From an uncultured delta proteobacterium (lineage in GTDB: Bacteria > Myxococcota_A > Polyangia > Palsa-1104), in NCBI GenBank assembly GCA_963785725.1, contig CAWAWS010000002.1:96001-160000 (forward strand): DNA of 64,000 nt, in the 5' to 3' direction. The notes under the pieces are model-generated. The model was not told where the DNA came from and searched no databases. It worked only from the letters and a program-made list of their open reading frames with translations. A program made the translations under genes and the position numbers. Of the stretch, positions 3,006 through 33,194 are shown piece by piece (within the stretch, counting starts at the first letter, position 1; the number at the start of each line of letters is the position of its first letter).

Positions 3006-5167
3006 AACTTGAAGGTGAGACCGGCGCGACCGTAGACCTGCGGATCCTGCGCCGGGAAGATCGAGGAGAACTTCGCCGTCAACGCCTGGCGCTGACCGAC
3101 GGGATCGCCTTCGAAGAGCAAGAAGATGTTCACGTTCTCCGTCACCGCGATCTCGAGCACCGCCTGCAGCATGAAGCGGCCACCGACGAAGCGCGTGCGC
3201 GGATCCTGCGACACGTTGGCCACGCTGGCCGGCGCCGGCAGCATCGCGCCGTTGGCGCCGGCCATGCCGTCGCGCGCTTTGCAGGCGTTCATCTCGTTGT
3301 GATAGGTGCTCGAGTCGCCGACGTCTTTGTCCTGCGCGCTGGCGTCGGCGCTGATGTCGCCGTAGGTCGGGCAGTTCTTGTCGCTGTAGACCTGCAAGTA
3401 CGGATGCGCCGTGAAGCGGACGATGTCGCCGAAGAGGAGCGAGATCGGCAGGCCGAGCTCGAAGATGAAGTCGTTGCGATGGGTGGGGCCGCCGCCGCCG
3501 CCGATGAAGGTGTCGACGCCGATGGCGACCGGGCCCGCCTGCACGAACTGCAGCTTGGCGTGCGCGCCGCCTTCGGTGAAGTAGCCGATCGTGCGCAGCT
3601 CGATGCCGGCGTCCATGCCGATCCAGTTCCAGCGAAACGCGCCGACGGTGAGGCGAATCTGACCGAAGGGCACGAAGCCGCCGGCGATGTCGGCCGTGAA
3701 GCGCGCCGGGTCGATGGCGACGGCGGAGAACGACGACATGCCGCGCATGCGCCGCGCCAGCTCTTCGCGCGAGTGGCCGTGATGCAGCGGCGCCAGGTCG
3801 GCGGCCAGGATCTTCTGCTCGCCGCCGTCGATGTGGAACGGCTGCTTGGCGTCGGAGAAGCCGGGCTGGCGCACCTCGATGAAGTGCTCGCCCGCCGGCA
3901 CGTTGTCCAGCTGCAGCGGCGTCTTGCCGACGATCTGTCCGTCGAGCATGACGGTGGCGCCGGCGACGTTGGACAAGATCTTGATCGATCCCGACGAGTT
4001 GAGCTCGGCCGACAGCGTCGTCGGCTGCGTGGGATCGAGGTCGACCTCGCGCTTCCACTCGGCGTAGCCGCGCGCGCGCACGCTGACGAAGTGCTTACCG
4101 GGCGCCATGTCGTTGTGATCGAACGGCGCCGGACCGGCCGACGCGCCGTCGATGAAGACCTCGGCGTTCGGCACCGGCGTCACGACGCGCAGCCGCGCCA
4201 TCTGCGGCACCGCCGGCTGCGCCGTCATGTCGGCGCGCACGACGCGCTGCTCGCCGGCGGCAATCGTGACGTCGAGCGGCTGCGGCGCGAAGCCTTTGGC
4301 ATGCACCTCGACGATGTGCTGCCCCGCCGGCACGTTCGGGATCGAGCTGTTGACGTTGCCCGCCAGCTGGCCGTCGATCCACACTTCGGCGCCGGGCTGG
4401 GCCGAGATGACGCGCAACGTGCCCGTCGGCGGCGCCGCCGGCGTCAGCTGCGCCTGCACTTTGAGCTGCTGGCTGCCGACGACGGTCACCACCTGCTTCC
4501 ACGACAGCGGATCCTTGCGCACCTCGACGTTGTGCTGCCCTTCGGTCAGGTCGCTCACCAAGGCCGGCGTCGTGTCGCGCTTCTGCCCGTCGACGTAGAC
4601 ATCGGCGCCCGGCACGTCCGACGTCACCAAGAGCGCGCCCTTCTTCACCGCCTGCTGCAGGTCGATCACCATCTGCCGCTGATCGCCTTCGCCGACGTCG
4701 GCCGTGTCGCTGTAGTCGTTGAACCCGGGCTTCGAAATCTTGATGGCGTGCTTGCCGGCCGACACCTCCACGCGCGCCGGCACGTTGCCGACCGGCGCGC
4801 CGTCGACGAACAGCTGCGCGCCGGTGGCCGCGTCGTTGCCGCTCGACGCGCGCACGTCGAGCACCGCCGGCCGCGCCTGCCGATCGAGCGTGAAGATGAA
4901 CCCTTCGGAGCGCGTCACCGTGATCGGCTTTTCGATCGTGCGAAAGCCGGGCAGCTCCAAGATGATCTTGTACGTGCCGCGCGGCAGCCGAATCGTCGCC
5001 GGCGTGTAGCCTTTGATGCCGGCCTCTTTGGCGTCGATGTAGATCGCCGCCTGCTGTGGCTGCGAGTCGATCTTGATGCGCATCTTGTGCGGCGACTGCG
5101 CGGCGGCGACTCCGCTCACGAGCATGACTAGGAAGGCGATAGGCGTCAGGCGAATCGGAGCTCGCAT
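3002..5167 (-). CDS. Secreted multi-PEGA domain protein with probable C-terminal outer-membrane beta-barrel
   Basis: Signal peptide MRAPIRLTPIAFLVMLVSGVAAA; about six repeats of S.P.GA.V.[IV]DG...TP...G.H.[VI].V...G[FY]; amphipathic strands ending AGLTFKF. Confidence 0.82.
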   Translation of the reverse strand: MRAPIRLTPIAFLVMLVSGVAAAQSPHKMRIKIDSQPQQAAIYIDAKEAGIKGYTPATIRLPRGTYKIILELPGFRTIEKPITVTRSEGFIFTLDRQARPAVLDVRASSGNDAATGAQLFVDGAPVGNVPARVEVSAGKHAIKISKPGFNDYSDTADVGEGDQRQMVIDLQQAVKKGALLVTSDVPGADVYVDGQKRDTTPALVSDLTEGQHNVEVRKDPLSWKQVVTVVGSQQLKVQAQLTPAAPPTGTLRVISAQPGAEVWIDGQLAGNVNSSIPNVPAGQHIVEVHAKGFAPQPLDVTIAAGEQRVVRADMTAQPAVPQMARLRVVTPVPNAEVFIDGASAGPAPFDHNDMAPGKHFVSVRARGYAEWKREVDLDPTQPTTLSAELNSSGSIKILSNVAGATVMLDGQIVGKTPLQLDNVPAGEHFIEVRQPGFSDAKQPFHIDGGEQKILAADLAPLHHGHSREELARRMRGMSSFSAVAIDPARFTADIAGGFVPFGQIRLTVGAFRWNWIGMDAGIELRTIGYFTEGGAHAKLQFVQAGPVAIGVDTFIGGGGGPTHRNDFIFELGLPISLLFGDIVRFTAHPYLQVYSDKNCPTYGDISADASAQDKDVGDSSTYHNEMNACKARDGMAGANGAMLPAPASVANVSQDPRTRFVGGRFMLQAVLEIAVTENVNIFLLFEGDPVGQRQALTAKFSSIFPAQDPQVYGRAGLTFKF

Positions 5168-14036: not shown

Positions 14037-15929
14037 TCACTTGCCGAGACGCGCCGATCCGGTGGCGCCGAGACGTGCTTCGTCGGCATAGCGGCCGTGC
14101 GGCTGGACCTGCAAGTAGCGCTGGTAGGCGGTGTTCGCTTCGCCTTGGCGACCGAGCGCGTGCAGGCAGCGCGCGGCGCCGATGAGCGCCTGCTGCGCGC
14201 GCGGACCGTGACCGGCCGCGACCGCCTGCAAGTGCGGCACGGCGCCCGCGCAATCGCCGAGACGATCGCGGCGCGCGCCGGCGAGGAACAGATGCGCGTC
14301 ATCGGCGTGCGGCGCTGACGGGAAACGGCGCAGATAATCCTCGAGCGCTTCCAGGCCCGCGCGCGTATCGCCGCCCGACAGCAGCGACTCGCCGCGACGG
14401 AACGCGGCCTCTTCGGCGAAGATGCCGTGGGCGAAACGGCGCTCGCTCTCGCCGTACGCGACGGCAGCGCGCAGCGGATCGCCCATGTCGTGGCCGAACG
14501 TCTGCGCCAACAGGAACTGCGCCTGCTCGGCTTCGGGACCATCCGAGCGCGCGACGCCGATGAGCAGCGGCAGCGCGCGCTCGGGCCGATGCGCCAGCCG
14601 CTCCGCCTGCGCTTGCAGGAGCGCCGCGCGATCGAGCTGGACGCGGGGCGCGTGGCCGGCGCGCAGCAGCTGCAAACGCGAAATGGCGCGATCGTACGCG
14701 CCGGCAAGGACTTCGGCTCGGGCGCGACCGAGGGCGTCGCGCGCGGCTTGGTTGGCGTCGGCGCGCGGCTGTGCGCTCGGCGCCTCGGCCGCGTGCCCCG
14801 CGGTCGGTGGCGGCTCGTCGATCGACAGCTCGAGCATCTCGGCGCGGAACAGCGTCGGCGTGCCCGCGCCGACGTCGACGCGCTCTTCGACCGGCAGGTG
14901 CCCTTCGGCGCGCACGCGCACGGCGTGACTGCCCGGCGCCACCGCCAACGACAGCGGCGCGCGACCATAATCGACGCCATCGACGGCGACCGTGGCGTCG
15001 GCGACGTCGGCGAACACATCGAGGCTCTCGGTCGGTCCCGAGGCGAGCGTCATGTCGAGCGCGCTCAGGCGCAACGCCGACTCGGCCGACAGCGCGCCCG
15101 GCGCCGTCGCGCCCGCCGCGAGCTGCGTCCCGGCCGGCACTTCGATGATGCGACCGGCGACGGCCACCCGCACGCGGCCGCGATCGCAGGCGACCTGCGT
15201 GCCCGCGGCCGACGAATCGACGAAGAAGCGCGTCCCGTGCACGCTGACCCGCGCATCGGCCGTCGCCACGATGAGCTCGGCGCCCGCCGCCAACGGATCG
15301 ACGTCGAGGACGACCGTGCCGCGCTCGAGCGTCAGCTGGCGCAGCTTGGTCAGGCTCGTCGACAGCTGCACGCGCGCACCGGTGGCGCCGCCCTCGACGG
15401 CCACGCGCGCGCCGCCCCACGTCGCCAAGACGCGGCCTTGAGGCGCGATGGTGAGCCAGCCGCGCGTCGGCACGACCATCTTGGCTTCGGCCACGGCATG
15501 ATCGTCGCCCAATTCGACGTCGGCCACGCCCTGCCGCGCGGCGATGGCGAAGCCGACATTGTCGCCGCCGCTGGCCACGGCTTCGTGACCCGCGCGCTGC
15601 GGATGCTTGAACGCCATCATCAACGCGAAGCCCGCTAGCGCGCTGGCGCACGCCGCCAGCGTCAGCCGCGACCACACCGGCCGCCGCCGCTCGAGGCGCC
15701 GGCGCACCGCCGTGATGTCTGCTTGCCGCATGAACGGCGGCTCCGCCGGCGGCTCCAGCGCCTCATGCACCGCGTCGATGCGCGCCATGGCCCGGCGACA
15801 GCGCTGGCAGCCGTCGACGTGATCGCCGATCCAACCCGCAGCCTCGGGCAACAGACGGCCGGCGCGAAACGCGAACAGCGCCTCCTCGGTCGGACCGCCT
15901 ACGTGAACGACTGGCGCGCCCGCGCTCAT
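14037..15929 (-). CDS. Anti-sigma factor: zf-HC2 - TM - FecR - PEGA - TPR
   Basis: HVDGCQRC (HxxxCxxC), TM, LERG...VSVHGTRFFV...CDRGRVRV FecR motif, PEGA, C-terminal TPR (YLRRFPSAPHA; YLQVQPHGRYA); ATG overlaps ECF stop. Confidence 0.85.
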   Translation of the reverse strand: MSAGAPVVHVGGPTEEALFAFRAGRLLPEAAGWIGDHVDGCQRCRRAMARIDAVHEALEPPAEPPFMRQADITAVRRRLERRRPVWSRLTLAACASALAGFALMMAFKHPQRAGHEAVASGGDNVGFAIAARQGVADVELGDDHAVAEAKMVVPTRGWLTIAPQGRVLATWGGARVAVEGGATGARVQLSTSLTKLRQLTLERGTVVLDVDPLAAGAELIVATADARVSVHGTRFFVDSSAAGTQVACDRGRVRVAVAGRIIEVPAGTQLAAGATAPGALSAESALRLSALDMTLASGPTESLDVFADVADATVAVDGVDYGRAPLSLAVAPGSHAVRVRAEGHLPVEERVDVGAGTPTLFRAEMLELSIDEPPPTAGHAAEAPSAQPRADANQAARDALGRARAEVLAGAYDRAISRLQLLRAGHAPRVQLDRAALLQAQAERLAHRPERALPLLIGVARSDGPEAEQAQFLLAQTFGHDMGDPLRAAVAYGESERRFAHGIFAEEAAFRRGESLLSGGDTRAGLEALEDYLRRFPSAPHADDAHLFLAGARRDRLGDCAGAVPHLQAVAAGHGPRAQQALIGAARCLHALGRQGEANTAYQRYLQVQPHGRYADEARLGATGSARLGK

Positions 15930-16537
15930 TGCCGTCCCCCGTCGATCGGCTTCGTCATCAGCTTGCCGCGCGCCGTGCGCAGCCGCCGCTTCACCGTGCG
16001 CGTCGAGCAGTCGAGCACCGCCGCCACGTCTTCGAGCGGCAGATCTTCCACTTCGTGCAGCACGAACGCCGCCCGCTCCTCGGCGCCCAGTTGATCGAGC
16101 GCGGCGCGCGCCGACATGACCGCGCGGCCCCGATCGAGCAGCTCGTCGGGCGTCCGCGAGCCTTGCGGCAGCGTCGCCTCCTCGGCGTCGCGGCGGAACC
16201 AGCTGCGCACGCGATCGTAACGGCGCGCGCGCGCGACGACGCGGTGGCAGATGCCGAACACGAACGTCGAGACGCGCGAACGACCTTCGAAGCCATCGAT
16301 CGAGCGACACACCTGCTCGAGCGACGACTGCACCAAATCCTCGTGCTGCTCGCGATCGCGCGGCGTCGCCAGCCGATAGACGATGCGATAGATCGACGGA
16401 TAGAGCGCGGTCATGAGCAGGTTGAGCGCGGCCGGATCGCCGGCCCGATGCCGCTCGACCAGCGCGGCCAGCTGCGGCTCGGGATCGCCGGCCGCTAACG
16501 TCGCAGGGCGTTTTTGCGTTCTATCCACGAGCTGCAT
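15926..16537 (-). CDS. ECF RNA polymerase sigma factor
   Basis: EDLVQ...FEGRSRVSTFVFGI (region 2); RAAFVLHEVEDLPLEDVAAVLDCSTRTVKRRL (region 4); SD GGAGG. Confidence 0.92.
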   Translation of the reverse strand: MQLVDRTQKRPATLAAGDPEPQLAALVERHRAGDPAALNLLMTALYPSIYRIVYRLATPRDREQHEDLVQSSLEQVCRSIDGFEGRSRVSTFVFGICHRVVARARRYDRVRSWFRRDAEEATLPQGSRTPDELLDRGRAVMSARAALDQLGAEERAAFVLHEVEDLPLEDVAAVLDCSTRTVKRRLRTARGKLMTKPIDGGRQ

Positions 16538-16622
16538 GCCTCCAGTGAGTATCTCAGCGCACCAACAAGGGCCACGCTGCTGCCATCTCTGCGAGCGAGC
16601 GGAGTATAGCGAATTTCATACG

Positions 16623-17825
16623 TTATGGTGTGTCTTGTGCGTTCGATGTCGGCGCCCGTCGCAGGGTCGGTCGACCCCACGACAGCCCGAGCGTGATCTC
16701 GGCCACGGCGCGCGAAAACTCGGCCACCGTCGTCGGTCCCAGCGTCACTTTCTCGTCGGTGACGGCCAAGGTCACGTCGAGCCCGATGACCAGCGACAGC
16801 GCGCCCGCGAGCCGGAACGACAGCCGCGGCCCGATGACGAGCGCGAACGACGCCACGGCGTGCCGGCCGTCGCCGTGGGCGTCGGTGGAGAGGACGACGA
16901 GCGCCGGGCCGGCCGTGGCGTCGAACGCGACCGCGCCGCCGGAAACGCCGACGCCGGCGCGCGCGGCCAAGGCGGCGCGAAAGAAGCCGAGCGCGTGGCC
17001 GTCGAGCGTCTGGTCGGCCCCAGCCAGCGACAGCGTGCCGCCGAGCCGCAAGACCCCGCGCGTCCACAGGATCCGCGCCGCGCCACCATATAACGAAGGG
17101 TTGTCGGCGCCAAAGCCGACGATGGCGGTGGCGGCGGCGTCGAGCGACAGTCGCTCGGCCGGCGGCGCCGACGGCCGGCGGAGGCGAGCCGCCGCCTCGC
17201 GTTCGGCCGCCTCTTGCCGATCGGCCGTGCGCGCCAGCTGCTCCTGCCGCGAACGCTCGGCGGCGAGCCGCTTTTGCACGGCGTCTTCGTCCTCGTCTTG
17301 CGGGCGCGGCGGCGCCGTCACCGTCGGGTGCTCGGCGACGATCGGCGCCGGCGGCGGCGGCGGCACCGGCTGCGGCGGAATCGGCGCCGGCTGCGTCTCG
17401 GGCGGTGCCGCTTTGGGCGCGCCGTGCGGCGCCAGCACGTCGGGAAACTCGGCCGTCAAGACGTCGGAGACCAAGAGCGACAAGCTCTCCGCCAAATCCT
17501 CGGCGTCGCGATAGGGGATCTCCGCTCGTCGCTGCGCGCGCGTCTTGCCGGCGCCGCTGACTTCGACGAGGCAGCGGGCGATGTGCTTGTTGCCGACGAA
17601 GAGGCAGCTCGCCTGCGCCTCGGCGTCGGCCGGCGCGGTCACGGTCAGCGTCGAGCCGAGCTGGCGCAGGGCGACCGCGACGTGCGCCGCCGCCGCCGAC
17701 TGCAGCTGCGCCGGCCCGTGGCCGTCGACGTTGACGCCGCGCCAGCGCACCCGCGCGCCGCCCGTTTCGGCGGCGAAGCTGCTGCCGCCCACCACGAGGC
17801 AGGCGAGCATGAACCAGCGCCGCAC
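16623..17825 (-). CDS. Secreted hypothetical protein, Pro-rich linker and probable C-terminal beta-barrel
   Basis: Signal peptide MRRWFMLACLVVGGSSFA; poly-Pro and coiled-coil segments; alternating hydrophobic strands. Confidence 0.7.
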   Translation of the reverse strand: MRRWFMLACLVVGGSSFAAETGGARVRWRGVNVDGHGPAQLQSAAAAHVAVALRQLGSTLTVTAPADAEAQASCLFVGNKHIARCLVEVSGAGKTRAQRRAEIPYRDAEDLAESLSLLVSDVLTAEFPDVLAPHGAPKAAPPETQPAPIPPQPVPPPPPAPIVAEHPTVTAPPRPQDEDEDAVQKRLAAERSRQEQLARTADRQEAAEREAAARLRRPSAPPAERLSLDAAATAIVGFGADNPSLYGGAARILWTRGVLRLGGTLSLAGADQTLDGHALGFFRAALAARAGVGVSGGAVAFDATAGPALVVLSTDAHGDGRHAVASFALVIGPRLSFRLAGALSLVIGLDVTLAVTDEKVTLGPTTVAEFSRAVAEITLGLSWGRPTLRRAPTSNAQDTP

Positions 17826-17864
17826 GCGCGCACGATAGCATGTCGTCGGTGCTACATTGCGCCC

Positions 17865-18914
17865 GTGCGCGCCCTTCCCTGCCTGCTCCTCCTGATATTA
17901 TTCGCTCGTCCCGCTTTCGCCGATGACCTCGTCATGCACTCCGAGCGCAACCTGGCGCCCGAGCAGTGCTTGCAGCTGCCGGCGGCCGACGTCGCCACGC
18001 GCTGCCCGGGCATGGGCGGTCGTCTCCTCTTCGTCGGCGGGACGCGCTACGCCATCGTCGAGCGCTACGAGCCCAAGCGTTCCACTTCGTGGTGCGACGA
18101 AGGCGACGGCCACTGGCGCTGCCGCCGCGTCGTCGTCCTCGACCGCGAATTGCGCGGCGCGCGGCGACGAAATCCGCAAGCCTACGTGACCGCCGGCGAG
18201 CTCTTGCGCCTCGTCGCCACCGCGCCGTCGTTCAAGGTCGGCGACGAGCTGGGCGCGCTCTTCGCCGGCGCCGAACGCCGCCGCAGCTGCATCGAGTCGC
18301 CGAAGATCGGCTGCGCCATCGAGGCCGCGCGGCTCAAAGTCTACGGACCGACGGGCGCGCCGCTCATCAAGCGGCGGCTGTGGCTCGTCGAGGATGCCGA
18401 TGGACCGCTCTTGCAGTGCGCCGATCAGACGCTGACCCGCTGCGACGCGCTCGATGCCGCCGGCTGGTTGGCGCTGGCCATCACACTGCGGCCGTCGTCG
18501 CAGGCGCCGGCCGGCCCGCCACCCGAGATCGACGTGCCCGACGTGCGCGCCGACCAGCGCAAGCTGCCGCCCGGCGACGTGCTCGCCGCCGCCGATGCCG
18601 CCGACACGCCCGCCGGCGCGCTCGATCCCTACGTCAAGCCGAAGTCGACGCGGTCGTTGCCGAGCGCGCCCTCGCGCGCCGACGCCGCCAAGCTGGCCCA
18701 GGCGCTCGACCAGCACGGCCGCGCCTGCCTCGAAGCCGACCGCTCCACCGTCGAGCTCACGCTCACCGGCGACGGCAACGTCATGGCGCTCGCCGTCGAC
18801 GGCGCCGGCCAGGGAGGGCCGCACGACTGCCTCTTGGCCACGGCGCGCAAGCTGCCGCTGCCGCGCTTTGCCAGCGCCACCTGGCGAATGACGGCCCTCG
18901 TTCGCAAGAAGTAG
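17865..18914 (+). CDS. Secreted Cys-rich hypothetical protein with C-terminal TonB_C/AgmX-PglI-like domain
   Basis: GTG start; signal peptide ending AFA; C-terminus RACL...VELTLTGDGNV...DCLLATARKLPLPRF. Confidence 0.65.
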   Translation: MRALPCLLLLILFARPAFADDLVMHSERNLAPEQCLQLPAADVATRCPGMGGRLLFVGGTRYAIVERYEPKRSTSWCDEGDGHWRCRRVVVLDRELRGARRRNPQAYVTAGELLRLVATAPSFKVGDELGALFAGAERRRSCIESPKIGCAIEAARLKVYGPTGAPLIKRRLWLVEDADGPLLQCADQTLTRCDALDAAGWLALAITLRPSSQAPAGPPPEIDVPDVRADQRKLPPGDVLAAADAADTPAGALDPYVKPKSTRSLPSAPSRADAAKLAQALDQHGRACLEADRSTVELTLTGDGNVMALAVDGAGQGGPHDCLLATARKLPLPRFASATWRMTALVRKK

Positions 18915-18974
18915 CCGTTTTTGCGTCATTTCCTGCGAGCCGAAGCACCCCACGTCGTGCTATAGGAGACGGCC

Positions 18975-19316
18975 ATGGCCGAGAAGCTTGCGCAGGGTCA
19001 GGAGAAATTTGGCGCCGACGAGCGCAAATGGCGCGATGTCGGTGCCGGGTTGAGCGTGCTCGACTTGAACGAGGAGAACGGACGGCGGCTCCAGCTCGTC
19101 CGCATCACGCCCAACGGCCGCATGCTGGCGCACAAGCACGTCGGCACCGAGGTCATGTACGTCGTGCGTGGCTCGCTCACCGTCGACGGCGCGCGCCTGA
19201 AGGCCGGCGATGTCCTCGTCGCGCCGCCCAACACGGTGCACCGCGAGACGTGGAGCGCCGAGGGCTGCGAGCTGGTCCTCGAGTGCTCGCCCGACGACGA
19301 GCTGCTCCGCTCCTAA
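18975..19316 (+). CDS. Cupin domain protein (ChrR-like)
   Basis: AHKHVGTEVMYVVRGSL...LKAGD...PPNTVH; SD AGGAG. Confidence 0.85.
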   Translation: MAEKLAQGQEKFGADERKWRDVGAGLSVLDLNEENGRRLQLVRITPNGRMLAHKHVGTEVMYVVRGSLTVDGARLKAGDVLVAPPNTVHRETWSAEGCELVLECSPDDELLRS

Positions 19317-19587
19317 CTTCCTGCGACTCATGGCGATTGCCGAGCGTCGACCGTTGGCGTCGACGCTTGGTCGCGCCGTTACGACGAAGGCGCGCGCGAG
19401 CAGAGATAGGCTCGCCGTTGCCAGTGACGCCGATTGCAGCTCGGCGCCGAGCGACGGCGGCCTGCCGGTCCAGGCGCTCGTGTGATCGCGTGAGGTTGCG
19501 CGCAGCCCGCGAAGCCGAGCGCGAAGGAAAGCAAGGCGGTGAGCTATCAACCGCTGAATGACAGCGACCTTCTCGCAACGAGACGAG

Positions 19588-20391
19588 TTAGATGCACTTG
19601 CCGACGCAGGGCGGATTCGGAATCGTGGGCGGCAGAACGCAATGGCCTGCGCCCGTGTCGGAAGAACAGTACAGCCTGCCGTTGCACTGACCGCAGCTGT
19701 GCGGGATGTTGCAATCATCGACGACCTCACCGCAGTTGGCCGTTCCGCACCAGTCTGCTTTGGTCGTCTCTTTGGGGATGCACTGGTAGCTCGCGAGCTT
19801 GGCGAAATCCCCCGGGTCGAGAGTGATGTCCAAGCCGGGCTCGTTGCCGCCGGTGCCGAGCGGGACGTCGACGCTGCCGACCTGTCCGACGCCCTCGTCG
19901 CCGCCCTGAACCGGGAGCGCCGCCGGGATGATGCCACCGCCCGACGGCGCCGGTGTCGGCGCCGCCGGAACGAACGGGATCGTTCCCGGCATCGTCTGGA
20001 AGTAGCTCAGCTGTGCCGGCGCCAGCGAACAGTACCAGAGCTTGTCCGCGAACACCTGGGCCGGCGTCGCCTTTAGATCCGTGGCATACGCAAAGTCGGT
20101 ACTCTGCGCGAAGCCGATGGCCAGAAGGTTGAAGATACCGGTGTCCGGGTCGGCCGGAGTCGGCGTCGTGACGAGGTAGCCGGCCGTTCCGAGGTCCGCC
20201 CACGGGTTGTCGGAGCAATTGTAGACGCCGTTCGCTTCCCACATGATCGTGCAGAGCGGATTCTCGGCGGTGTTGCAGTCCGGAACGCCTCCTCCTCCCC
20301 TCACGATAACTGCAGAAGTGCTGCTACTCGTGGGCGAAACGGCACAGCCGGCAGCAACGAAAAAGACGAGGACGCTAGCGAAGGCGCGCAT
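19588..20391 (-). CDS. Cys-rich secreted lipoprotein (paralog A of tandem pair)
   Basis: SD AGGAG; lipobox AAG-C; NPWADLGTAGYLV; Cys-rich C-terminal domain; ends PPCVGKCI*. Confidence 0.75.
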   Translation of the reverse strand: MRAFASVLVFFVAAGCAVSPTSSSTSAVIVRGGGGVPDCNTAENPLCTIMWEANGVYNCSDNPWADLGTAGYLVTTPTPADPDTGIFNLLAIGFAQSTDFAYATDLKATPAQVFADKLWYCSLAPAQLSYFQTMPGTIPFVPAAPTPAPSGGGIIPAALPVQGGDEGVGQVGSVDVPLGTGGNEPGLDITLDPGDFAKLASYQCIPKETTKADWCGTANCGEVVDDCNIPHSCGQCNGRLYCSSDTGAGHCVLPPTIPNPPCVGKCI

Positions 20392-20426
20392 GGTTCTCCT
20401 GAGCGGACGAATGTGCGACAGGACAT

Positions 20427-20442
20427 AGCAAGTCTGTTGCCG
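20427..20442 (-). promoter_or_regulatory. Putative sigma54 -24/-12 promoter for 19588-20391
   Basis: Minus strand CGGCAACAGACTTGCT = GG-N10-GC with TTGC; IHF-like CAAcgacTTA at 20462-20471. Confidence 0.7.
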
Positions 20443-20479
20443 ATCACAGCGCCAAGCGGCACAACGACTTACGCGCGAC

Positions 20480-20501
20480 CTGTAGCTGACTGAGCTACGG
20501 A
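20480..20501. promoter_or_regulatory. Palindromic operator/UAS, copy 1 (GTAGCT-N5-AGCTAC)
   Basis: CTGTAGCTGACTGAGCTACGGA; 18/22 identical to 21412-21433 and at the same offset from a sigma54 promoter. Confidence 0.6.
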
Positions 20502-20726
20502 AATCGGAGAGCTGGCTGACGAAACAGCCTCGCGGTTATCGGTGAAAACGAGCGGTTCACTACAGCTCGATGACGACACACGGGAGACGAATTTGCCGCT
20601 GCTGGGCGGCTCGCTTCGTCGACGGAATCGGGCCGATTGAGCGGTGGCGACGAGGCGAAGGAGCTGCGTGCGGAGAATCGAGCGAGCGGCGCACCGCGTG
20701 GTTTTGCGCGCGTTAGGATGTCGTCG

Positions 20727-21275
20727 TCAGATGCAGTCGCCGTGGCAGGTTATTGGCGGCGTCGTGACTGGCGGCGTCGTGACGGTCGGCGTCGCGCGAC
20801 ATGCGGCCAACGGCGCTAGCGAGGCCGGGCCGTCGCAGACGATCTTGCACGGATTGTTGCCCGTGCCGTCGATGGGCACGAGACCGCCGCCGCCGACCTG
20901 TCCGATCTGGACGCTGATCTGCGACCTGCAGCTGGCGGGAAGCGCCGCCGGACAGGAGAGCGAGTACGCCAGATATTGCTTCAGCGCGGCGCAGTCGGTG
21001 ACGAACGGCTGCCACGACGCCGGCTTCGTCAGCGTCGCGTCGTAGCCGAAGAGGACAAAGCCGCTTCCCGACGGTACCGGAACGATATAGCCCGGCGCTT
21101 GACCGGCCCAAGGGTTGTACGCCGGATCCGTAATCACCGGCGCTTCCTCGCAGGTGTCGACGCAGGAAATCGCCGTGTCGGCGGCGGTCGTCGAGCCTTC
21201 GGGCGCGCTTTCCGGCGGCAAACAACCGATGACGGCGAAAGCGAACGTGGACAGCGTCAGCAGGCGAAGGCGCAT
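20727..21275 (-). CDS. Cys-rich secreted lipoprotein (paralog B of tandem pair)
   Basis: SD GGAGG; lipobox VIG-C; NPWAGQAPGYIV; ends PPITCHGDCI*. Confidence 0.75.
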   Translation of the reverse strand: MRLRLLTLSTFAFAVIGCLPPESAPEGSTTAADTAISCVDTCEEAPVITDPAYNPWAGQAPGYIVPVPSGSGFVLFGYDATLTKPASWQPFVTDCAALKQYLAYSLSCPAALPASCRSQISVQIGQVGGGGLVPIDGTGNNPCKIVCDGPASLAPLAACRATPTVTTPPVTTPPITCHGDCI

Positions 21276-21357
21276 CGTTCCTCCGAATTCGTTGGGCGAC
21301 AACGCGTGCGCTGGATCAAACGAGCGAATCCAGCTGCAGCAGCGTGTGCGCTGGCAA

Positions 21358-21373
21358 AGCAAGACCGCGGCCA
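21358..21373 (-). promoter_or_regulatory. Putative sigma54 -24/-12 promoter for 20727-21275
   Basis: Minus strand TGGCCGCGGTCTTGCT = GG-N10-GC with TTGC. Confidence 0.7.
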
Positions 21374-21411
21374 CGACGCGCACCGCGCCGTTTCAGCTGC
21401 TTGCCGGATTG

Positions 21412-21433
21412 CTGTGGCTGCGCGAGCTACGGA
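21412..21433. promoter_or_regulatory. Palindromic operator/UAS, copy 2
   Basis: CTGTGGCTGCGCGAGCTACGGA; matches 20480-20501 at 18/22. Confidence 0.6.
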
Positions 21434-21446
21434 TTCCGACGGCGGT

Positions 21447-24141
21447 CTACTGAAACAGGAGGACGTAGCGGGTCCAGCTTCTAGCGTCTTTTTGTAGCCG
21501 CGCCAGCCGCTCGTCGCGCAGCGCCACCGGCGGCGATTCGCCGTGCGCGATGCGCGCGAGCACGGCGTCGAAGAAGGCGCCGGCGTTGGCGTCGGGGATC
21601 GCCTCCGACGACGCGAAGACCGCGCGCGCGCCGGCGACGATGAGCGCCATCGGCAAGCCCCACGGCTCGTGCAGATAGGGCGCGGCGCGGCCGGCGTTGC
21701 AAGCCGCGAGGACGACGAGCGGGCGATTGCGCAGCGGCTGCTTCTCGAGATCGGCGGCCGTGAGCGCGAAGTTTCCCGCGGCGTCGGGCGAGAGCGCCAG
21801 GAGCCACGTGTCCGACAAGTCGAGATCGATGAGGCCGTGGGCGTTGAACTCAATCTCGCCGGCGTCGCCGAGCTCGGCCAGCGCGCGTTTCGGCGTGGCG
21901 TCGGCGCCGGCGAGCGTGCGCACGCCGTCGGCGCGCGTCGTCCACGGAAACAGCCGCGGCAGGCTCAGCGTCGGCGGCGGCAAGACGTCGGTGACGACGA
22001 GGCGCGGCGCGGCCGGGGACGGATTCGCCTTCGGCGGCGCGTCAGGCGCGTGACCGAGCCGATAGCTCCAGGCGATGTCCGGCGGCAAGAGCTCGGGCCG
22101 ACCGTTCACCGGCGCCAGCGCGTACACGGCCACTTCGGGGCACGTCGCCAACACCGCACGCACCGCCGGCGGCACCAGCTGCGCGGCGTCGATCGCGGGG
22201 TTGGTGCGCACCTCGTAGTGACCGACGGCGGCGCCGCCGGCGGCGCGCGCGGCGACGACGAGGCGCGCGTCGTCGAGGGCGACGCCGAGCGCGCAGCCCT
22301 GCCCTGCCTTGGCTTCGGCTTCCTGCGCCAGCGTGTCGAGCGCGCCGTCGAAGTCGCCACGGCGACCGGCGTCGACGGCGAGCATTTGATAGGCGAAGGT
22401 GCGCGCTTTTTTGGCGTCGGCGTCGAGGCCGGCGCGCGCGGGCGTCATCGCCGGCGCCAGCAGCTTCATCGCCGCCGGCCGATCGCTGCGCAACGACAAG
22501 CGCGCCAACATGACGTCGGCCAGCCGTTGCTGGCTCGGCGTCAGCGACGGACGCGCCGCTTGCAGCTCGGCGGGCACGGTCTTGGCTTGCGGCGTGTCGC
22601 GACCGGCCAAGTAGAGGCTCGTCACCAAATCCGTGTTCAACAGCGCCACCGAATGATCGCACGCGGGCGTCTCCGCCAATTCGCGCGCGGCGCCGTCGAA
22701 ATCGAGCTTGAAGACGTCCTCGACGCCGAAGGCGAGGTGCGACGTGCGATGACCGACGCAGCTCTCGGGAGCGCGCAGCATGCCTTCGGTCAAATAGGCG
22801 CGCATGAGCGAGAAGTCGTTGCGATAGCGCGCGACTTGGCCGAGGAGAAAGATGACGATGGTCTCGGCGAAGCGCGGCACCAGGCCGGCGCGTCGGCTCG
22901 AGGCGATGGTGGCGAGCGCCCAGCGCCGGGAGACGCTGGTGCGATGGCGCTCTTGCTCGTTACTGGCGAGCTGCTTCTCCATGTCGGCGCAGCGATAGTC
23001 GAGGTGGTGCTGATTGCAGGCGTCGACGGCGGCGGTGAGCTCGGTGACGGCAGCGTCGAAGTCGCCGCGCGCGGCGGCGACGGCGGCTTCGCTCTGCGCC
23101 AGCCTGGCCTGCCACCACGGATCGCCGTTGCGCGCGACGAGCTGACGCAGGAGCGCGAGCATCGGCCGGGCTCGTGCGGTTGAAGAGGACGAGGCTGCCG
23201 AGCATGAGGTCGTCGGCGTGCGCCTTGGTGATGGCCGCGAAGAATTCGGCCAGCTCGGCCGGCGGCACCGCCGGCGGCGACGTCGGCATCAGCATGTAGC
23301 GCGCGTAACGCGGACCGAGCGTGGCGCGCGCCGCGGGCGCCTCCTTGGCGATGCGATCGATCCACGTCGCCAGCGTCGCGTCGCCGAAGATGCCGTCGAG
23401 CTTCACGGCCAAGGGACGCAGCTCCTGCAGCCGCTGCACCGACTGCGCCGAACGCGCGGCGTGGTAGAAATAGTGGCGCACCATGCTCGGCGCGCGCCGC
23501 ACGACGTCGTCGCCCGGCAGCGGCCCGCCGGTGATCATCGGCTTGGCGGCGGCGATGTCGGCGGCGGTGCTCTTGAGGCGCGCGCTCCAGCCGTCCTTGA
23601 GCGCCGCCGAACGGGCGCGCGCTTCGTCGGCCCAGCCCGGCTCGGCGAGCGCGGCGACCGCGTCGAACGACTGCGCGGCGGCGAGCGGCAGCTCCAGCGC
23701 CACCAAGGCCAGCGCCCGATTCCAGAGCGCGCGTGAATGCTTCGGCGCGTGCGCGAGGACGGCGTCGAGCTGCTCCAGCGCTTCGTCGACGTTGCCGCGC
23801 ATCAGCGTCGCGAGCGCGCGGTCGGCGGCGACGTCGTCGGACTTGGGCGCGCGCTCGAGCGCTTCGGCGGCGCGCCCGAGATCGCCGGCCACGAGCGACG
23901 CCGCGCCCACGCCGTGCCAATCGCCGGCGTCGGACAGGCGCGCCACCGCCGCCAGCGGCACCGACTCGCGCGCGTCCTTGTGGTCGGCGAGGCCTCCATC
24001 GAGCGGGCGCCAACGATCGAGCGCGGCGTAGCTGAGCCGAGCCGCGAGCGCGCGTTTGGGCGCCGTCACGAGCGGCTCGTCGCGATGACAGCTCGCGAGG
24101 CACAGCGAGATTGCGGCAGCGAGCGTCACGAAGCGCAGCAT
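21447..24141 (-). CDS. Lipoprotein TPR-CHAT (caspase-fold) protease, ~897 aa, one apparent +1 frameshift near 23165
   Basis: N-terminal lipobox LAS-C; TPR (ALWNRALAL...GWADEAR); after the shift ...GDPWW; C-terminal CHAT with EFNAHG and VVLAAC (His/Cys dyad), GLPMALIVAGARAV, ALRDER. Confidence 0.82.
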
Positions 24142-24205
24142 GTGCGCTATGAATCGTTCGTTCCGCCGCCCAAAATCAAGCGGCGATTGTGTTTACGAAG
24201 ATCGG

Positions 24206-25096
24206 CTACAGCGCCGCGCGGACTTTGCGCTCTTCTTCGCTGAGCTCGTAGATGCGCTTCAACAACGCGTCGGCGATGCGCTTGTGCGACGAGAGGCGGT
24301 TGCCGAACTTCTTGAACGGCGACAGATCGATGGGCTCGCCGAAGACGGCGATGACGCGCTTGGTGCCGGCGAAGTTGCCTTTGACGTCGGCGACGATGTC
24401 GTTCGAGAGGCCGTGGATGAACGCGGGCACGACGATCGGCCACGCGTCCATGACCAGCTTGCCGACGCCCGGCTGTGCCGGCAGCGGCTGATAGGGATCG
24501 TCGTTCTTGTTGCGCGTGCCTTCCGGATGAAACCCGACGAGCACCTGGCCTTTGTGCAGCTCGGCGACGACGCGCTCGAGCGCCCACTTGTTGAAGTCGG
24601 CCTTCTGCGGCTCGCGAAAGAACGGCGGAAACATGCGCCCGCCGCCGATGAACAGGTTCACGAGCACGCCGAGCGCGCTTTGATAGAAGAAATCGGCGCG
24701 CACCGGACACAACACCGGCTGACGCAGCGGCGTGTGACGATGCAAGAGCAGCATCAACATGTAGAGATCGAAGAAGCTGCGATGGTTCGAGACGAGGACG
24801 ATGCCGTCCGAGTACTTCAAGCCCTGCAGCCGCTCGAGACCGACGGGAATCATCATGTTGCGCGAGCCGACGGTCATCCAGCCGGCGCCGATGGTGCGCA
24901 GCCAGCGCTCGGTCAGCGGCAGCGCGCGCCGATGCAGGAAATCCATGGCGCGGAAGGCGGTGCGCTCGAACGGCGCCAACAATTCGATCGGCGGCGCGAG
25001 CGAGAGCGCTGCGTCGTCGTGCGGCGGCTGCGTGATCGGCGTCTTCGTCGTCGGCATCGGGCTGGCCGGCATCTCGAATTCCAAAGTAGCCTTCAA
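24206..25096 (-). CDS. Lysophospholipid/glycerol-phosphate acyltransferase (PlsC family); start may be 25072
   Basis: SNHRSFFD (HX4D), FHPEGTR. Confidence 0.9.
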   Translation of the reverse strand: MKATLEFEMPASPMPTTKTPITQPPHDDAALSLAPPIELLAPFERTAFRAMDFLHRRALPLTERWLRTIGAGWMTVGSRNMMIPVGLERLQGLKYSDGIVLVSNHRSFFDLYMLMLLLHRHTPLRQPVLCPVRADFFYQSALGVLVNLFIGGGRMFPPFFREPQKADFNKWALERVVAELHKGQVLVGFHPEGTRNKNDDPYQPLPAQPGVGKLVMDAWPIVVPAFIHGLSNDIVADVKGNFAGTKRVIAVFGEPIDLSPFKKFGNRLSSHKRIADALLKRIYELSEEERKVRAAL

Positions 25097-27665: not shown

Positions 27666-30600
27666 ATGCTGCAAAAGGCACAACTGCCGCCGCTCGACGT
27701 CGGCGAGACGCTCGCGGGCAAGCGCATTCTCTTCGTCGGCGCCACTGGCTTCGTCGGCAAAGTGGCGCTCTCGATGTTCCTCTGTCGCTATCCGGCGCTG
27801 GGCAAGCTGTTCGTGCTCGTGCGTCCGGGCGCCGGCTCGTCGTCGGACGACCGCTTCTTCACGAAAATAGCGGCGTCGCCGACGTTCGATCCGATTCGCG
27901 AGCGCTGGGGCGAAGGCACCGACGCGTTCCTGCGCGAAAAATGCGTGCCGCTGGCCGGCGACGTCTCGCGACCCTTATTGAACTTCAATGAGGAGACCTT
28001 AGCGAAGATCGGCAAGCTCGACGCCATCATCAACTGCGCGGGATTGGTGTCATTCAATCCGTCGTTGGAGACCGCACTACGCATCAACGTCTTAGGGCCG
28101 AAGCATGTGCTGGAAGTGGCGCGGCGCACCGGCGCGTCGGTGGTGCACATCTCGACCTGCTTCGTGGCCGGCAATCGCGACGGCGAAGTGTGGGAAGACG
28201 AGCCGCTGGTCGGCTATTTCCCGCGTAAAGATCGCGGCCACGGCGCGCAGACCGACACCTTGCGCGACGACGACTTCTCGGTCGAGCTCGAGATCGCCGA
28301 CTGCCAGCGCATCATCGATCAAATCAAGAGCCGCGCCGACGACCGCGCGCACGTCTCCGAGTTCCGCGATCGCGGCGCCGCGCGGCTCAAGAGCGAAGGC
28401 CGCGACGCCGACGACGAGCGCACGCTCAAAATCGCCGTCCAGCGCGAGCGCAAAGTGTGGGTGGCCGAGAAGCTCACCGATCTCGGCATGGAGCGCGCGC
28501 AACATTGGGGCTGGCCCAACACGTACACGTACACGAAGTCGCTCGGCGATCAGGTGTGCGCGCAAGCGGGCGACGTGCGCGCCTGCATCGTGCGGCCGGC
28601 GATCGTCGAATCGTCGGTGCGCTATCCGTTCGAAGGCTGGAACGAGGGCTTCACGACGTCGGCGCCGCTGGCGTTCATGAGCATCAAAGGCCATCGCACC
28701 TATCCGGCCGGCGACAAGGCGACGCTCGACATCATCCCCGTCGACATGGTGGCCGCGGGGCTCATCATGGCGACGGCGGCGACCATCGCGGGGCAGAACG
28801 AGCTCGTCTATCAGCTCGGCTCGTCGGACGTGAACCCGCTGTACATGAAGCGCGCCGTCGAGCTGCTCGGCCTGCACAAGCGCCGCTATTTCCAAGAGCG
28901 CAACGACAAGGACGAAGGCTCGAAGCTCCTCAACATCGTGCTGTCGCGGATGGAGCCGGTCGCCGTCTCGCGCGAGCGTTACGAGAGCGCGTCGGCGCCG
29001 CTGTGGCTGTCGCTGGCCGAGCGCGCGACCAAGCTGATCGACGACTACACGCCGCGCTGGGGCGCGCCGCGTTTGGCCGGCATGGCCGAGCACATGAAGA
29101 CGCGCCTTGGCCAAGTCTCACAGGTGGCCAAGCAGACGAACGAGCTGTTTCAGCTGTTCATGCCGTTCATCTACGAGCGCGAATACGTCTTCCGCTGCGA
29201 CAACATTCGCGCGCTCTATGCGCGCTTGACGCCGGCCGATCAGGCGCTCCTGCGCTGGGATCCCGAGCAGCTGAGCTGGCGCCATTACTGGCTCGACATT
29301 CACATGCGCGCCCTCGAGAAGTGGGTCTTCCCCAACCTCGAGGAGGAGTTCAAGCAGCGTCCGAAGGCGGTCTACACCTATCGCGATCTGCTCGAGATGT
29401 TCGACGCGACGACGAAGCACCATCGTCATCGCACCGCCATGCGCCTCTTGCCGCATCCCGACAGCTTGTCGGAGCCGCATCGCTACACCTACGCCGACCT
29501 GCAGGACATGGCCGATCGCGTCGCCGCGATGCTGCGCGAGCGCGGCGTCATCCCCGGCGACAAGGTCATGCTGCTCGCCGAGAATCGGCCCGAGTGGGGC
29601 ATCACCTACTTCGGCATTTTGAAGGCGGGCGCGGTCGTGGTGCCGGTCGATTGGCAGTCGACGGCGGACGAAGTGCAGAACCTCGTCGGCTGGGCGCGCG
29701 CCAAAGCGATCGTCCTCAGCGACAAAGTGCGCGACCGGCTGAGCGCGTTCAACGGCGAATTCGCCGCGGCGCAGATCATCCGCTTCGACGATCTCTTGCA
29801 CGAAGAGCCCAAAGTCTCGGCGGCGGCGCTCGTGCATCATCCGAAGGCGGACGACCTCGCGTCGCTCATTTTCACGTCGGGAACGACGGGGCGGCCCAAG
29901 GGCGTCATGCTGTCGCATCGCAACTTCTCGTCGCTGTTGTCGAAGCTCGCGGGCGTGTTCGACATCGACAAGCACGACGGTCTCTTGTCGGTCTTGCCGC
30001 TGCATCACACCTTCGAGTTCACGGCGGGCCTGCTCATGCCGCTCATGCGCGGCGCGCAGATCACCTATCTCGACGAAGTCGACGCCGACGCGCTCACGCA
30101 CGCCTTCGAGAGCGGCAACATCACCGGCATGGTCGGCGTGCCCGCGCTGTGGCAGCTGTTCCAGCGCAAGATCGAGAAGTCGGTCGCCGACTCGGGGCCG
30201 TGGGCCAAGCGCATCTTCGACCTGCTCATCGACGCCAACCGCAAGCTGCGCGATCGCGTGCCGCCGGCGCTCGACAGCTTGATGCTGCTCAACTGGGGAC
30301 GCCTCTTCTTCTGGCCGGTGCATCAGAAGTTCGGCGGACGGCTGCGCCTGCTCATCTCGGGCGGCTCGGCGCTGCCGACCGACACGATGAAGACGCTGCG
30401 CGGCCTCGGCTTCAACCTGTTCGAAGGCTACGGCTTGACCGAAGCCTCGCCGGTGTTGACGGTCAATCGACCGGGCACGCGCCTTCTGCCCGGCGCCGTC
30501 GGTGAGCCGCTGCCGGGCATCGACGTGCGCATCGACAACCCCGATGCGCGCGGTGTCGGCGAGGTCGTGGCCTCGGGACCGAACGTCATGCTCGGCTACT

Positions 30601-32157
30601 TCGAGAACCCCGAGGCGACCAAAGAGGTCATCGGCGGCGACGGCTGGCTGCACACCGGCGATCTCGGCCGCTTCGACGACGAAGGCCGCTTGTACATCGT
30701 CGGCCGCAAGAAGGAGATGATCCTCGGACCGTCGGGCGAGAACGTCTATCCCGACGAGCTCGAGGACGCCTACCGCGAGTCGCCGTACATCAAGGAGCTG
30801 TCGATCGTCGGCTTGCCGGCGGAGAGCGGCGGCGAAACGGTGGCGATGATGCTCGTGCCCGAGTACGAGCCGTCGGGCGAAGAGCTGTCGCGCGAGGTGA
30901 TTCGCGAGCGCGTGATGGAGCACGTCAAAGGCGTGTCGGCGAAGCTGCCGCTCTACAAACGCGTCAAGCTCGTGCATTTGACCGACGTCGAGCTGCCGAA
31001 GACGGCGACGCGCAAGGTGAAGCGCAAGCTCGTCGTCGAGGAGATGCAGAAGCTCGAGCGGCTGAAAAAGCGCGCCGAAGAGACGCGCAAGACGGCCGCC
31101 GCATCCGGTGAGGGCGACGACGTCTGGATTCTCGCGCTGGTGGCGACGGTGGCCAATAAGCCGCGCGACAAGGTCTACGGCGCCGCGCGCATGGAAGAGC
31201 TCGGCTTCGACTCGCTCATGTACACCGAGCTCGGCGTGGCGCTGGAGGCGGCGGGCGTGGCCGTGCCCGACGCCGGCAACACCGACTTGACCGGCGTCGA
31301 GACCGTCGACGACCTGGCCAAGCTGGTGCGCGCGTGGGGCTACGCCGACAAGAAGCCCAAGAAGAAGACGAAGGCGCTCAAGGCGGCCGAGGACAACGAC
31401 GACGCCAACGAGATCCACGTGCCCGAGATGGTGGCGACGATGGGCCGGCAAGCGCTGACGTGGGGCCAGCGCGCGCTCTACGAGCGGCTGTTCGAGACGA
31501 CGGTGACGGGACGCGCGAACATCCCGGGAAACACCAGCTTCCTCGTCGCGGCCAATCACGCGAGCCACCTCGACATGGGCCTCGTCAAGCACGCGCTCGG
31601 CGATTGGGGCGCGCACCTCGTGGCGCTGGCGGCGAAGGATTACTTCTTCGAGGATCCGATCAAGCGCGCCTACTTCGAGAACTTCACGAACTTGGTGCCG
31701 ATGGATCGCCACGGCTCGCTTGCGCGAATCCTTGCGCCTCGCCTCCGAGGTCATGAAGCAGGGCTACATTTTGCTGATCTTCCCCGAGGGAACGCGGTCG
31801 ACCAACGGCGTGATGGTCGACTTCAAGCCGTCGATTGGCTACCTGTCGCTGGCCAACAAAGTGGACGTGCTGCCGATGTATCTCGACGGCACGTTCGGCG
31901 CGCTGCCCAAAGGCAGCGTGCTGCCGAAGCATCGCGAGATCGCGGCGCACATCGGGCCGCTCATCACCTACGAGCAGCTGAAGAAGGCGACCGAAGGCAT
32001 GCCCAAAGCGGACTCTTATCGCGAGGCGTCGCGGCTCGTCGAGCTGGCGGTGCGCAAGCTGGCGCCGCAGGGCAGCGTCAACCGCGGCCCGGCGGCGGCG
32101 CCGTCGACGGGCAAGCTCACCGCCGAGAGCGTCATGGCGCCGGAGGCGAGCGAATGA
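27666..32157 (+). CDS. elbD: Multifunctional ether-lipid enzyme: fatty acyl-CoA reductase - acyl-CoA synthetase - ACP - acyltransferase; +1 frameshift at ~31720
   Basis: GATGFVGK and [10 protein letters not shown] (FAR); [24 protein letters not shown] (A domain); LGFDSL (ACP); NHASHLD then, in the shifted frame, IFPEGTRS (AT). Same architecture as Myxococcus xanthus ElbD; SD AAGGAG. Confidence 0.9.
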
Positions 32158-33194
32158 GCGTCGAAATCGTTCGGGCACCGGGCGCCAAGCAGCGCGTGCT
32201 CGTCACCGGCGGCACCGGCTTCTTGGGCCGCTGGGTCGTCGACGAGCTCGTCCGCGCCGGCCACGGCGTGCGCGTCTTGGCGCGCGGCAGCTCGCCCACG
32301 TTGAGCGAGCGCGGCGCCGAAGTCGTCATCGGCGACGTCGTCCGCGACATCGACCCGAGCGAGCATCCCGACGCCGTCACGCTGGCGCAGGCGCTCGAAG
32401 GCTGCCACGCCCTGTTCCACCTGGCCGGCTTCGTATCGCGCGATCCCGGCGACGGGCAGCGCATGATGCGCGTGCACATCGAAGGCACGCGGCGCATTCT
32501 CCAGGCGGCGAAGGCGGCCGGCGTGCGCCGCGTCGTGCTCGCGTCGACGTCGGGCACCATCGCCGTGTCGCGCGAGCCCGAAGTCCTCGACGAGCGCGCG
32601 CCGACGCCGACCGAGATCGTCAGCGGCTGGCCCTATTATTTGTCCAAGATCTACCAAGAGCGGCTGGCGCTCGATCTCGGCGCGTCGCTCGGCCTCGAGG
32701 TCGTCGTCGTCAATCCGACGTTGCTGCTCGGTCCCGGCGACGAGCGGCAGTCGTCGACCGGCGACGTCAAGCGCTTCTTGCGCCGCGAGATTCCGGTCGT
32801 GCCCGAAGGCGGCGTCAGCTTCGTCGACGCGCGCGACGCCGCCCTGGCGACCGTGGCCGCGCTCGAGCACGGCCGCGCCGGCGAGCGCTACTTGCTCGGC
32901 GGCCCCAACTGGACCTGCGCCGAATATTTCGGCCGCCTGCAGCGCGCGTCCAAAGTGCGCGCGCCGCTCTTGAAGCTGCCGCGCAAGCTGCAGCTGCGCG
33001 CCGCCTCGTTCATCGAGCACGCCTACAAGGCGCTCGACCGGCAGCCGCCCATCGAGCGCATCTCGGTCGAGATGGCCGACGTCTATTGGTGGTGCGACTC
33101 GTCGAAGGCCGAGCGCGAATTGGGGTTCGTCGCGCGCGATCCGGGCGAGACGCTCGACGACACCATCCGCGACTTGCGCACCCGCATGATCTGA
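32154..33194 (+). CDS. NAD-dependent epimerase/dehydratase (positional equivalent of elbE)
   Basis: ATGA overlap with elb[28 protein letters not shown]. Confidence 0.9.

Follow-up and report, generated by a model that had tools for sequence, protein, structure and literature searches.

Two open reading frames (ORFs) on the minus strand of the 64,000-nucleotide (nt) stretch of uncultured delta proteobacterial DNA analysed here (the window), referred to as ORF A and ORF B, are best explained as a whole as anciently diverged paralogs belonging to a single, undescribed family of bacterial lipoproteins that are small and rich in disulfides, a reading to which we give a probability of roughly 80%. 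The source assembly comprises 8.9 Mb in 47 contigs with a genome GC content of 0.679; the window lies on contig C2 and its GC content varies between 0.60 and 0.74 per 2 kb. P0001 denotes ORF A and P0002 ORF B, other P numbers being relatives obtained in the searches. Conservation figures refer to a 23-sequence family alignment unless stated otherwise, and clade support to a 24-row tree obtained by a quick maximum-likelihood run. The coordinates of all features are collected in Table 1.

Several lines of evidence indicate that ORF A and ORF B are genes. A strong Shine–Dalgarno sequence is located just 5´ of each ATG (AGGAGAA-cc-ATG in ORF A and GGAGGAA-cg-ATG in ORF B), and GC content at the third codon position (GC3) amounts to 0.81 in ORF A and 0.83 in ORF B, well over the values at the first and second positions, which is the pattern of the real genes of this genome. 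Further, intact orthologs of ORF A were found at 96% and 58% identity (the latter being P0004), and intact relatives of ORF B at 97, 73, 74, 42 and 48%. Inspection of the N-termini (MR-AFASVLVFFV-AAG-C16 in ORF A and MRLR-LLTLSTFAFA-VIG-C18 in ORF B) revealed in both cases a basic n-region, a hydrophobic core and a lipobox, as expected for a bacterial lipoprotein, i.e., a substrate of Lgt and LspA. The Gly-Cys pair of the lipobox shows at least 90% conservation across the family, and G17 and C18 of ORF B are invariant within its own clade. Given the ribosome-binding sites, the GC3 pattern and the persistence of intact orthologs down to 42–58% identity, we consider both ORFs to be real lipoprotein genes. 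They are separated by 335 nt, and the ORF listing also contains an alternative, longer version of ORF B starting at a GTG at position 21383.

The homology of the two proteins is established by intermediates and by a third-party profile, while direct comparison barely links them. The best BLASTP alignment between ORF A and ORF B was non-significant (E 0.32), neither protein retrieved the other from the own genome at E ≤ 10, and subfamily profiles failed to cross-detect (E 360 for the A-clade profile on ORF B; E 79 for the short-B profile on ORF A). When the mature chains were compared with shuffled versions, z values of 3.8 (Smith–Waterman, local) and 3.4 (semi-global) were obtained, each score being reached by 2 of 500 shuffles. 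By contrast, P0004 from the A clade and P0009, a long-form member of the B clade, aligned from the first to the last residue with a BLASTP E value of 6e-7, and P0001 matched P0008 at E 0.006; P0008 and P0009, the longer relatives of ORF B, carry an A-like Cys-rich segment ahead of the same C-terminal ending. Comparison of the A alignment with the B alignment by hhalign, the type of profile–profile check that the original prediction had proposed, returned an E value of 6.2e-5 and a probability of 65%.

The third-party profile was built from 13 relatives, none of them from the A clade or the B clade, and was searched against 76,241 stop-to-stop ORFs of the own genome, each of at least 60 amino acids (aa). 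ORF A ranked first (E 1.4e-21, model positions 1–214) and ORF B second (E 5.1e-19, model positions 2–166, outside the Cys module), so that both match, over their full length, a family profile built without them. The remaining own-genome matches all fell within model positions ~130–229, which correspond to the Cys module and the tail. Each of the 13 relatives also matched over its full length among 1.84 billion proteins, with E values from 1e-9 to 1e-34. On these comparisons ORF A and ORF B are true, very distant homologs of ~27–30% identity, and the earlier description of the pair as cryptic paralogs, drawn from the sequence by eye, is borne out. That two unrelated Gly/Pro/Cys-rich secreted proteins merely share short motifs by chance or composition would agree with the failed pairwise, subfamily and own-genome searches, but this is highly improbable and, unless the structures turn out to differ in fold, the third-party search already refutes it, as the profile matches both proteins across the whole N-terminal domain (N-domain) while its other matches in this GC-rich genome stay within the Cys module, the intermediates are linked at full length and the pairwise score exceeds 498 of the 500 shuffles.

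A joint A + B profile searched against the 1.84 billion representatives retrieved 39 proteins at E ≤ 1e-3, namely 17 full-length members (182–265 aa), 2 fragments and 20 multi-repeat proteins that share the Cys module only. The members follow a common plan, in which a signal peptide and lipobox Cys are followed by a short Ser/Thr/Ala/Pro tether and then by a domain of ~110–130 residues with the pattern C...[ND]PW...G[YFH][IVL]...G.D.T...W...Y..LPGT.PF.C...GQ[VI]G...G.G. This N-domain contains one invariant Cys, usually within a C-x(2-7)-C pair, a strand ending in G-x-D-x-T, the segment Y-x-x-L-P-G-T-[IL]-P-[FY]-x-C, and GQ[VI]G with a Gly-rich stretch that ends in G-G-[NGD]. The C-terminal part consists of a short helix (L-x-x-L), an optional module of eight cysteines (8-Cys module), a Pro-rich linker and the ending. 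In ORF A numbering, W64 and G169 are invariant, P63, Q170, G172, G15 and C16 are at least 90% conserved, and G71, G93, C262 and C266 belong to the positions that are either invariant or conserved to at least 90%; G264 is invariant in a 9-sequence alignment. All four of the colinear motif pairs listed in the original prediction occupy matching columns in the family alignments. Its view of constrained motifs in proteins of otherwise low identity also holds, the listed motifs being the best-conserved columns in members that are otherwise 23–35% identical.

This family is rare and undescribed in the libraries that we searched. Pfam, NCBIfam and PADLOC assigned no family to ORF A or ORF B, the family profile matched no PDB sequence at E ≤ 1, and the ESM Atlas yielded unnamed clusters only, with scores (0.76–0.79) too low to be meaningful. 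Apart from a zf-MYND match that was judged to be due to chance, no Pfam or NCBIfam model reached E ≤ 1 with ORF A or ORF B. When 41 other genomes of the order and a 400-genome sample of the phylum were searched with the N-domain profile, no member turned up, the one weak match, in the phylum sample, covering the signal-peptide region only; the joint profile matched nothing but the Cys module in 400 genomes of the class. In total, the family was absent from ~840 other genomes searched and its relatives were found only among metagenome proteins. A limited full-text search of the literature returned nothing on a lipoprotein family with NPW and GQVG motifs, from which we do not claim absence from print.

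Concerning the history of the pair, the tree placed ORF A in a clade of four rows (P0001, P0003, P0004 and P0012; Shimodaira–Hasegawa-like approximate likelihood-ratio test (SH-aLRT) 96) and ORF B in another of six rows (P0002 and P0005–P0009; SH-aLRT 99), which in turn groups with P0010, P0011 and P0014 (SH-aLRT 91). Since ORF A and ORF B belong to separate clades and, in this tree, are not mutual closest relatives, the duplication is taken to be old. The 8-Cys module is present in 20 of the 24 family rows. As only the four short-B rows lack it, while their sisters P0008 and P0009 keep it, the alignments indicate that the ORF B lineage lost this module of ~45 residues, which ORF A retains. 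The pair thus provides a clean example of domain loss, in which one paralog dropped the 8-Cys module and retained the terminal Cys pair.

The cysteine content of the mature chains is even in all three proteins counted, with 14 residues in ORF A, 10 in ORF B and 18 in P0008, and therefore the module accounts for exactly eight; such even counts fit self-contained disulfide units in an exported protein. The module spans ~45 residues with the consensus C.P..C......CG...DGCG....CG.C..G..C..G.C. ORF A has one copy and ORF B none, while 20 of the 39 joint-profile matches carry several. Beyond the family, 2–7 copies occur in many secreted proteins (P0021–P0045, and own-genome contigs C6, C42, C17, C27, C39 and C20), and among the bearers there are low-GC proteins whose N-termini resemble archaeal pilins. 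The proteins scanned gave no sequence match to the module in Pfam, NCBIfam or the PDB, and we treat it as a lead, not as a named family.

The original prediction had also pointed to a conserved terminal CxGxCI-stop, and the family alignment supports this, with C-x-G-x-C-[IVQ] in canonical form in 13 of the 24 rows. P0007 deviates from it (C-R-G-C-R). Nine rows end instead in C-[PGA]-[KR]-G-x-[YF]-x-[DNS]-x-[DN]-x-C-x-C-x-x-G-[LV]-P-[QI], a form with four cysteines; these nine long-ending proteins constitute one sister clade (SH-aLRT 97), and P0015 is the sole row of the 24 with neither ending. C-x-G-x-C-[IVQ] is inherited within one clade. Of the 76,125 stop-to-stop ORFs of the own genome, 14 end in C.G.C., and 11 of these are Arg-rich or otherwise non-coding-looking; 0.07 would be expected among 7,565 coding-like ORFs. 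The scan thus left three credible proteins, i.e., ORF A, ORF B and a Cys-module lipoprotein on contig C20, and a further idea of the original prediction, that the ending is a sorting tag, does not hold in the sense of a tag shared by many cargo proteins. No sorting domain, TIGR03901 included, was matched in NCBIfam at E ≤ 1 by either ORF. The ending appears instead to travel with the Cys module in few proteins. The lipoprotein on contig C20 (410 aa, C20:67033-68265, plus strand) is Cys-rich, has an unrelated N-terminal part and closes with C-K-C-I-G-L-C-M after its last module, and a two-module ORF of another genome ends in C-Y-G-T-C-M. Because the sister clade has replaced the ending by a four-Cys form, a structural disulfide element fits better than a tag, and the terminal C-x-G-x-C may represent a small element of this kind, shortened from the long four-Cys ending.

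Both ORFs are preceded by copies of a 22-nt dyad, TCCGTAGCT-N5-AGCTACAG, with the consensus TCCGTAGCT-N5-AGC[CT]ACAG; 18 of the 22 bases are identical between the copies, and the one ahead of ORF A contains a 6-bp dyad. Only four sites with the core GTAGCT-N5-AGCYAC exist in the 8.9-Mb genome, and a third site, on contig C10 near position 4692, lies ~80 nt ahead of a gene pair for a secreted TPR protein and a lipoprotein. Since the two proteins have diverged so far, the element looks like a common regulatory site, possibly an operator, and not like a leftover of the duplication. Rfam gave no match at E ≤ 0.1 in the region 18500–25000, and neither a sigma-70-like promoter nor an intrinsic terminator was found in 19200–21600.

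Taken together, ORF A and ORF B would be exported, lipid-anchored through their first Cys and, as their even mature cysteine counts (14 and 10) suggest, fully disulfide-bonded. The N-domain may act as a binding head; our best guess for its working surface would be the invariant NPW together with the Gly-rich loop region at GQVG. The terminal C-x-G-x-C would serve as a structural disulfide staple and not as a sorting signal. The two genes are probably co-regulated through the common upstream dyad, and both products are predicted to be accessory envelope proteins, not core ones, because the slot that houses their genes, along with a gene for a TPR-CHAT lipoprotein, varies between strains, as described below.

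A number of observations weigh against this explanation or parts of it. The staple proposed for the terminus is based on the alignment and on genome rarity, not on a structure. AlphaFold models, built from 23 and 26 aligned sequences, were poor for both ORF A (mean predicted local distance difference test score (pLDDT) 50, the GQVG region under 50) and ORF B (mean pLDDT 63; residues 35–120 at 72–84, the GQVG stretch 120–134 under 50). GQVG, the most conserved motif, is thus modelled as unstructured, as a processing or modification site would be. Searches with the ORF B model found no matching fold (Foldseek, best E 1.4; VIA, best Z 3.3). In addition, the 13 third-party relatives were first gathered with a profile that included A and B, so that their selection was not fully independent, and the GC3 values of ORF A and ORF B rank low among the genes of the genome, within the lowest third (18th and 28th percentile, respectively). 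A foreign-DNA origin of the two ORFs was rejected, these GC3 values being low-normal and not outliers. With regard to the models, both contain a β-hairpin past the NPW...GY.V segment and then short helices, which is too weak for comparing folds or for a disulfide map; given the low model quality, the null result of the fold searches says little and is no evidence of a new fold. Complex prediction with mature A and mature B returned a score of 0.02 and a mark of 0.32, which gives no verdict.

Table 1. Features of the ORF A/ORF B region (positions in the window; strand as read in the window).
Feature	Positions	Strand	Description	Basis
ORF A (P0001)	19588..20391	minus	267-aa lipoprotein, long form carrying the Cys-rich module	
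ORF A signal peptide and lipobox	20344..20391	minus	residues 1-16, ...VAAG-C16	read from sequence
ORF A NPW motif	20200..20208	minus	N62 P63 W64	family alignment
ORF A GQVG motif	19876..19887	minus	G169-G172, begins the Gly-rich loop	family alignment
ORF A 8-Cys module	19639..19782	minus	residues 204-251, C..C.G..NCG..VDDC.....CG.C......C.......C	alignments
ORF A Pro-rich linker and terminal CVGKCI	19591..19632	minus	residues 254-267	sequence, alignment
ORF B (P0002)	20727..21275	minus	from ATG; 182-aa lipoprotein, short form lacking the Cys-rich module	
ORF B signal peptide and lipobox	21222..21275	minus	residues 1-18, ...AVIG-C18	read from sequence
ORF B NPW motif	21108..21116	minus	N54 P55 W56	alignments
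ORF B GQVG motif	20892..20903	minus	G125-G128	alignments
ORF B Pro/Thr-rich linker and terminal CHGDCI	20730..20771	minus	residues 169-182	sequence, alignment
22-nt dyad	20480..20501	minus	~90-100 nt upstream of the ORF A start	
22-nt dyad, copy	21412..21433	minus	~140-150 nt upstream of the ORF B start, 14 nt past the CHAT stop codon	
CHAT-domain ORF (caspase-like peptidase)	21447..23162	minus	571 aa as listed	Pfam PF12770, E 2.5e-14
TPR lipoprotein ORF	22960..24141	minus	lipobox LASC	domain scan, GC3 signal

Upstream of ORF B, on the same strand and at a distance of 171 nt, lies a CHAT-domain ORF that overlaps by 203 nt with a TPR lipoprotein ORF. The GC3 coding signal switches from the TPR to the CHAT frame near position 23180, and two contigs of a soil metagenome run (X1) are without one base at 23160. 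Because one base fewer at this position puts both ORFs in one frame, they are probably a single TPR-CHAT lipoprotein gene of ~900 aa that is frameshifted here, the frameshift in the window being either an assembly error or a real mutation. Downstream of ORF A there is a convergent gene for a ChrR-type cupin (18975–19316). Four genomes of the same genus lack a counterpart of the block 19316–24200. Between the cupin and the acyltransferase genes, three of these four congeners carry other genes: G236 has a glycosyltransferase-like protein and a small membrane protein (read from the translation), G103 has a secreted protein that ends in an M23-peptidase-like motif (also read from its translation) and G271 has other ORFs; in G166 the flanks are on separate short contigs. 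The position thus looks like a hypervariable accessory slot.

Outside the slot, an extracytoplasmic function (ECF) sigma factor gene (15926–16537) adjoins it, together with two signal-peptide ORFs without family (16623–17825 on the minus strand and ~17862–18914 on the plus strand). The sigma factor gene, these two ORFs and the cupin gene (15926–19316) may form an envelope-stress regulatory unit. On the other side, positions 27666–33194 of the plus strand encode a multidomain enzyme of 1842 aa with fatty-acyl reductase-like, AMP-binding, carrier protein, acyltransferase and epimerase domains, and its gene is preceded by a stretch of lower GC content (0.60–0.63, 24–28 kb).

The CHAT gene upstream and the variable slot keep alive the ideas of a protease loop and of a tag, which the original prediction had put forward. 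Made concrete, they give an alternative in which the TPR-CHAT lipoprotein would have ORF A and ORF B as its dedicated substrates or partners and would cleave or transfer them at the GQVG loop or read the tail as a processing tag. The proximity of the CHAT-domain gene on the same strand would agree with it, as would the lipobox of the TPR ORF, which is probably part of the same gene and would bring the peptidase into the compartment of ORF A and ORF B. The location of all four ORFs in one variable slot and a GQVG motif that is the best conserved and yet modelled as unstructured point in the same direction. There is also precedent, as the clan CD peptidases PorU and GPI8 act as C-terminal signal transpeptidases. 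However, apart from this genome, a near-identical strain was the only one to show the adjacency. The B-CHAT junction does occur in the contigs of run X1 at ~98.6% identity, but it is of the same lineage as P0003 and P0005 and therefore adds no independent support, and neighbourhood searches with the family alignments over genome and metagenome contigs returned a signal-peptide look-alike and no family member. Besides, ORF A and ORF B have upstream regions of their own with the common dyad and need not belong to a CHAT operon, and only two to three proteins of the genome carry the tail. We therefore regard a client relationship as unlikely, at about one chance in ten. The still narrower proposal that the four slot ORFs make up one envelope system, with a lipid-anchored TPR-CHAT peptidase and two lipoprotein clients processed at GQVG or via the tail, is slightly less likely again; if true, it would represent an extracytoplasmic caspase-type maturation or sorting pathway, undescribed in bacteria.

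A second alternative takes the terminal two-Cys motif as a target of post-translational modification, similar to the modification of CPxCGxG endings, of the type of peptides made on the ribosome and then modified post-translationally (RiPPs), by oxidative enzymes of the ChrH family that depend on multinuclear non-heme iron (MNIOs). According to PMC13056109, MNIOs modify a C-terminal two-Cys motif in precursors with lipoprotein signals and in proteins of more than 30 kDa, with Myxococcota among the bearers, and the substrates are encoded in the same gene cluster as the enzyme. These precedents, and three MNIO (PF05114) genes in the own genome, would be consistent with such a role, but the three genes are all on other contigs (C14, C36 and C39) and none is beside ORF A or ORF B, the motif is C-x-G-x-C-[IVQ] and not C-P-x-C-G-x-G, and the sister clade has a four-Cys ending in its place, which makes this modification very improbable. 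The reading that we prefer remains that of two old paralogs in a disulfide-rich lipoprotein family, whose terminal Cys pair would be structural.

If this is right, a small, rare and unnamed disulfide-rich family joins the Cys-rich envelope proteins of myxobacteria, of which a large number are known already. In the scans made, two items were missing from the curated libraries, i.e., the N-domain with NPW and GQVG and the widespread 8-Cys module, and their practical use would be in annotation and in picking targets for structure work. By itself the family opens no long-standing question, unless the link to the CHAT peptidase proves real.

Several known systems resemble ORF A and ORF B in part. 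As the abstract of PMC11980579 describes it, MYXO-CTERM (TIGR03901) is likewise a C-terminal element with conserved Cys on envelope proteins of Myxococcota; however, each genome has dozens of proteins that bear it, and further parts come after its signature motif, whereas the ORF A and ORF B chains stop one residue past the last Cys and two to three proteins carry their ending. The lipoproteins modified by ChrH-family MNIOs, as presented in PMC13056109, share with ORF A and ORF B a lipoprotein signal and a conserved two-Cys motif at the extreme C-terminus, but ORF A and ORF B, which are folded and much larger, contain many cysteines besides this pair, end in a different motif and have no MNIO gene nearby. 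Similarity to proteins with the TraA-type stalk repeat (TIGR04201) and to MopE-like proteins (PF11617) lies in a lipid-anchored, exported and disulfide-rich architecture with modular Cys units in Myxococcota; no match to either model was found in ORF A or ORF B (E ≤ 1) or in eight relatives and module-bearing proteins (E ≤ 0.1), and ORF A and ORF B differ from them in being short (182–267 aa), with at most one module and a distinct, non-repeat NPW/GQVG N-domain. Finally, with the widespread 8-Cys multi-repeat proteins, ORF A and 20 of the 24 family rows have in common one copy of the module, in contrast with ORF B, which has none.

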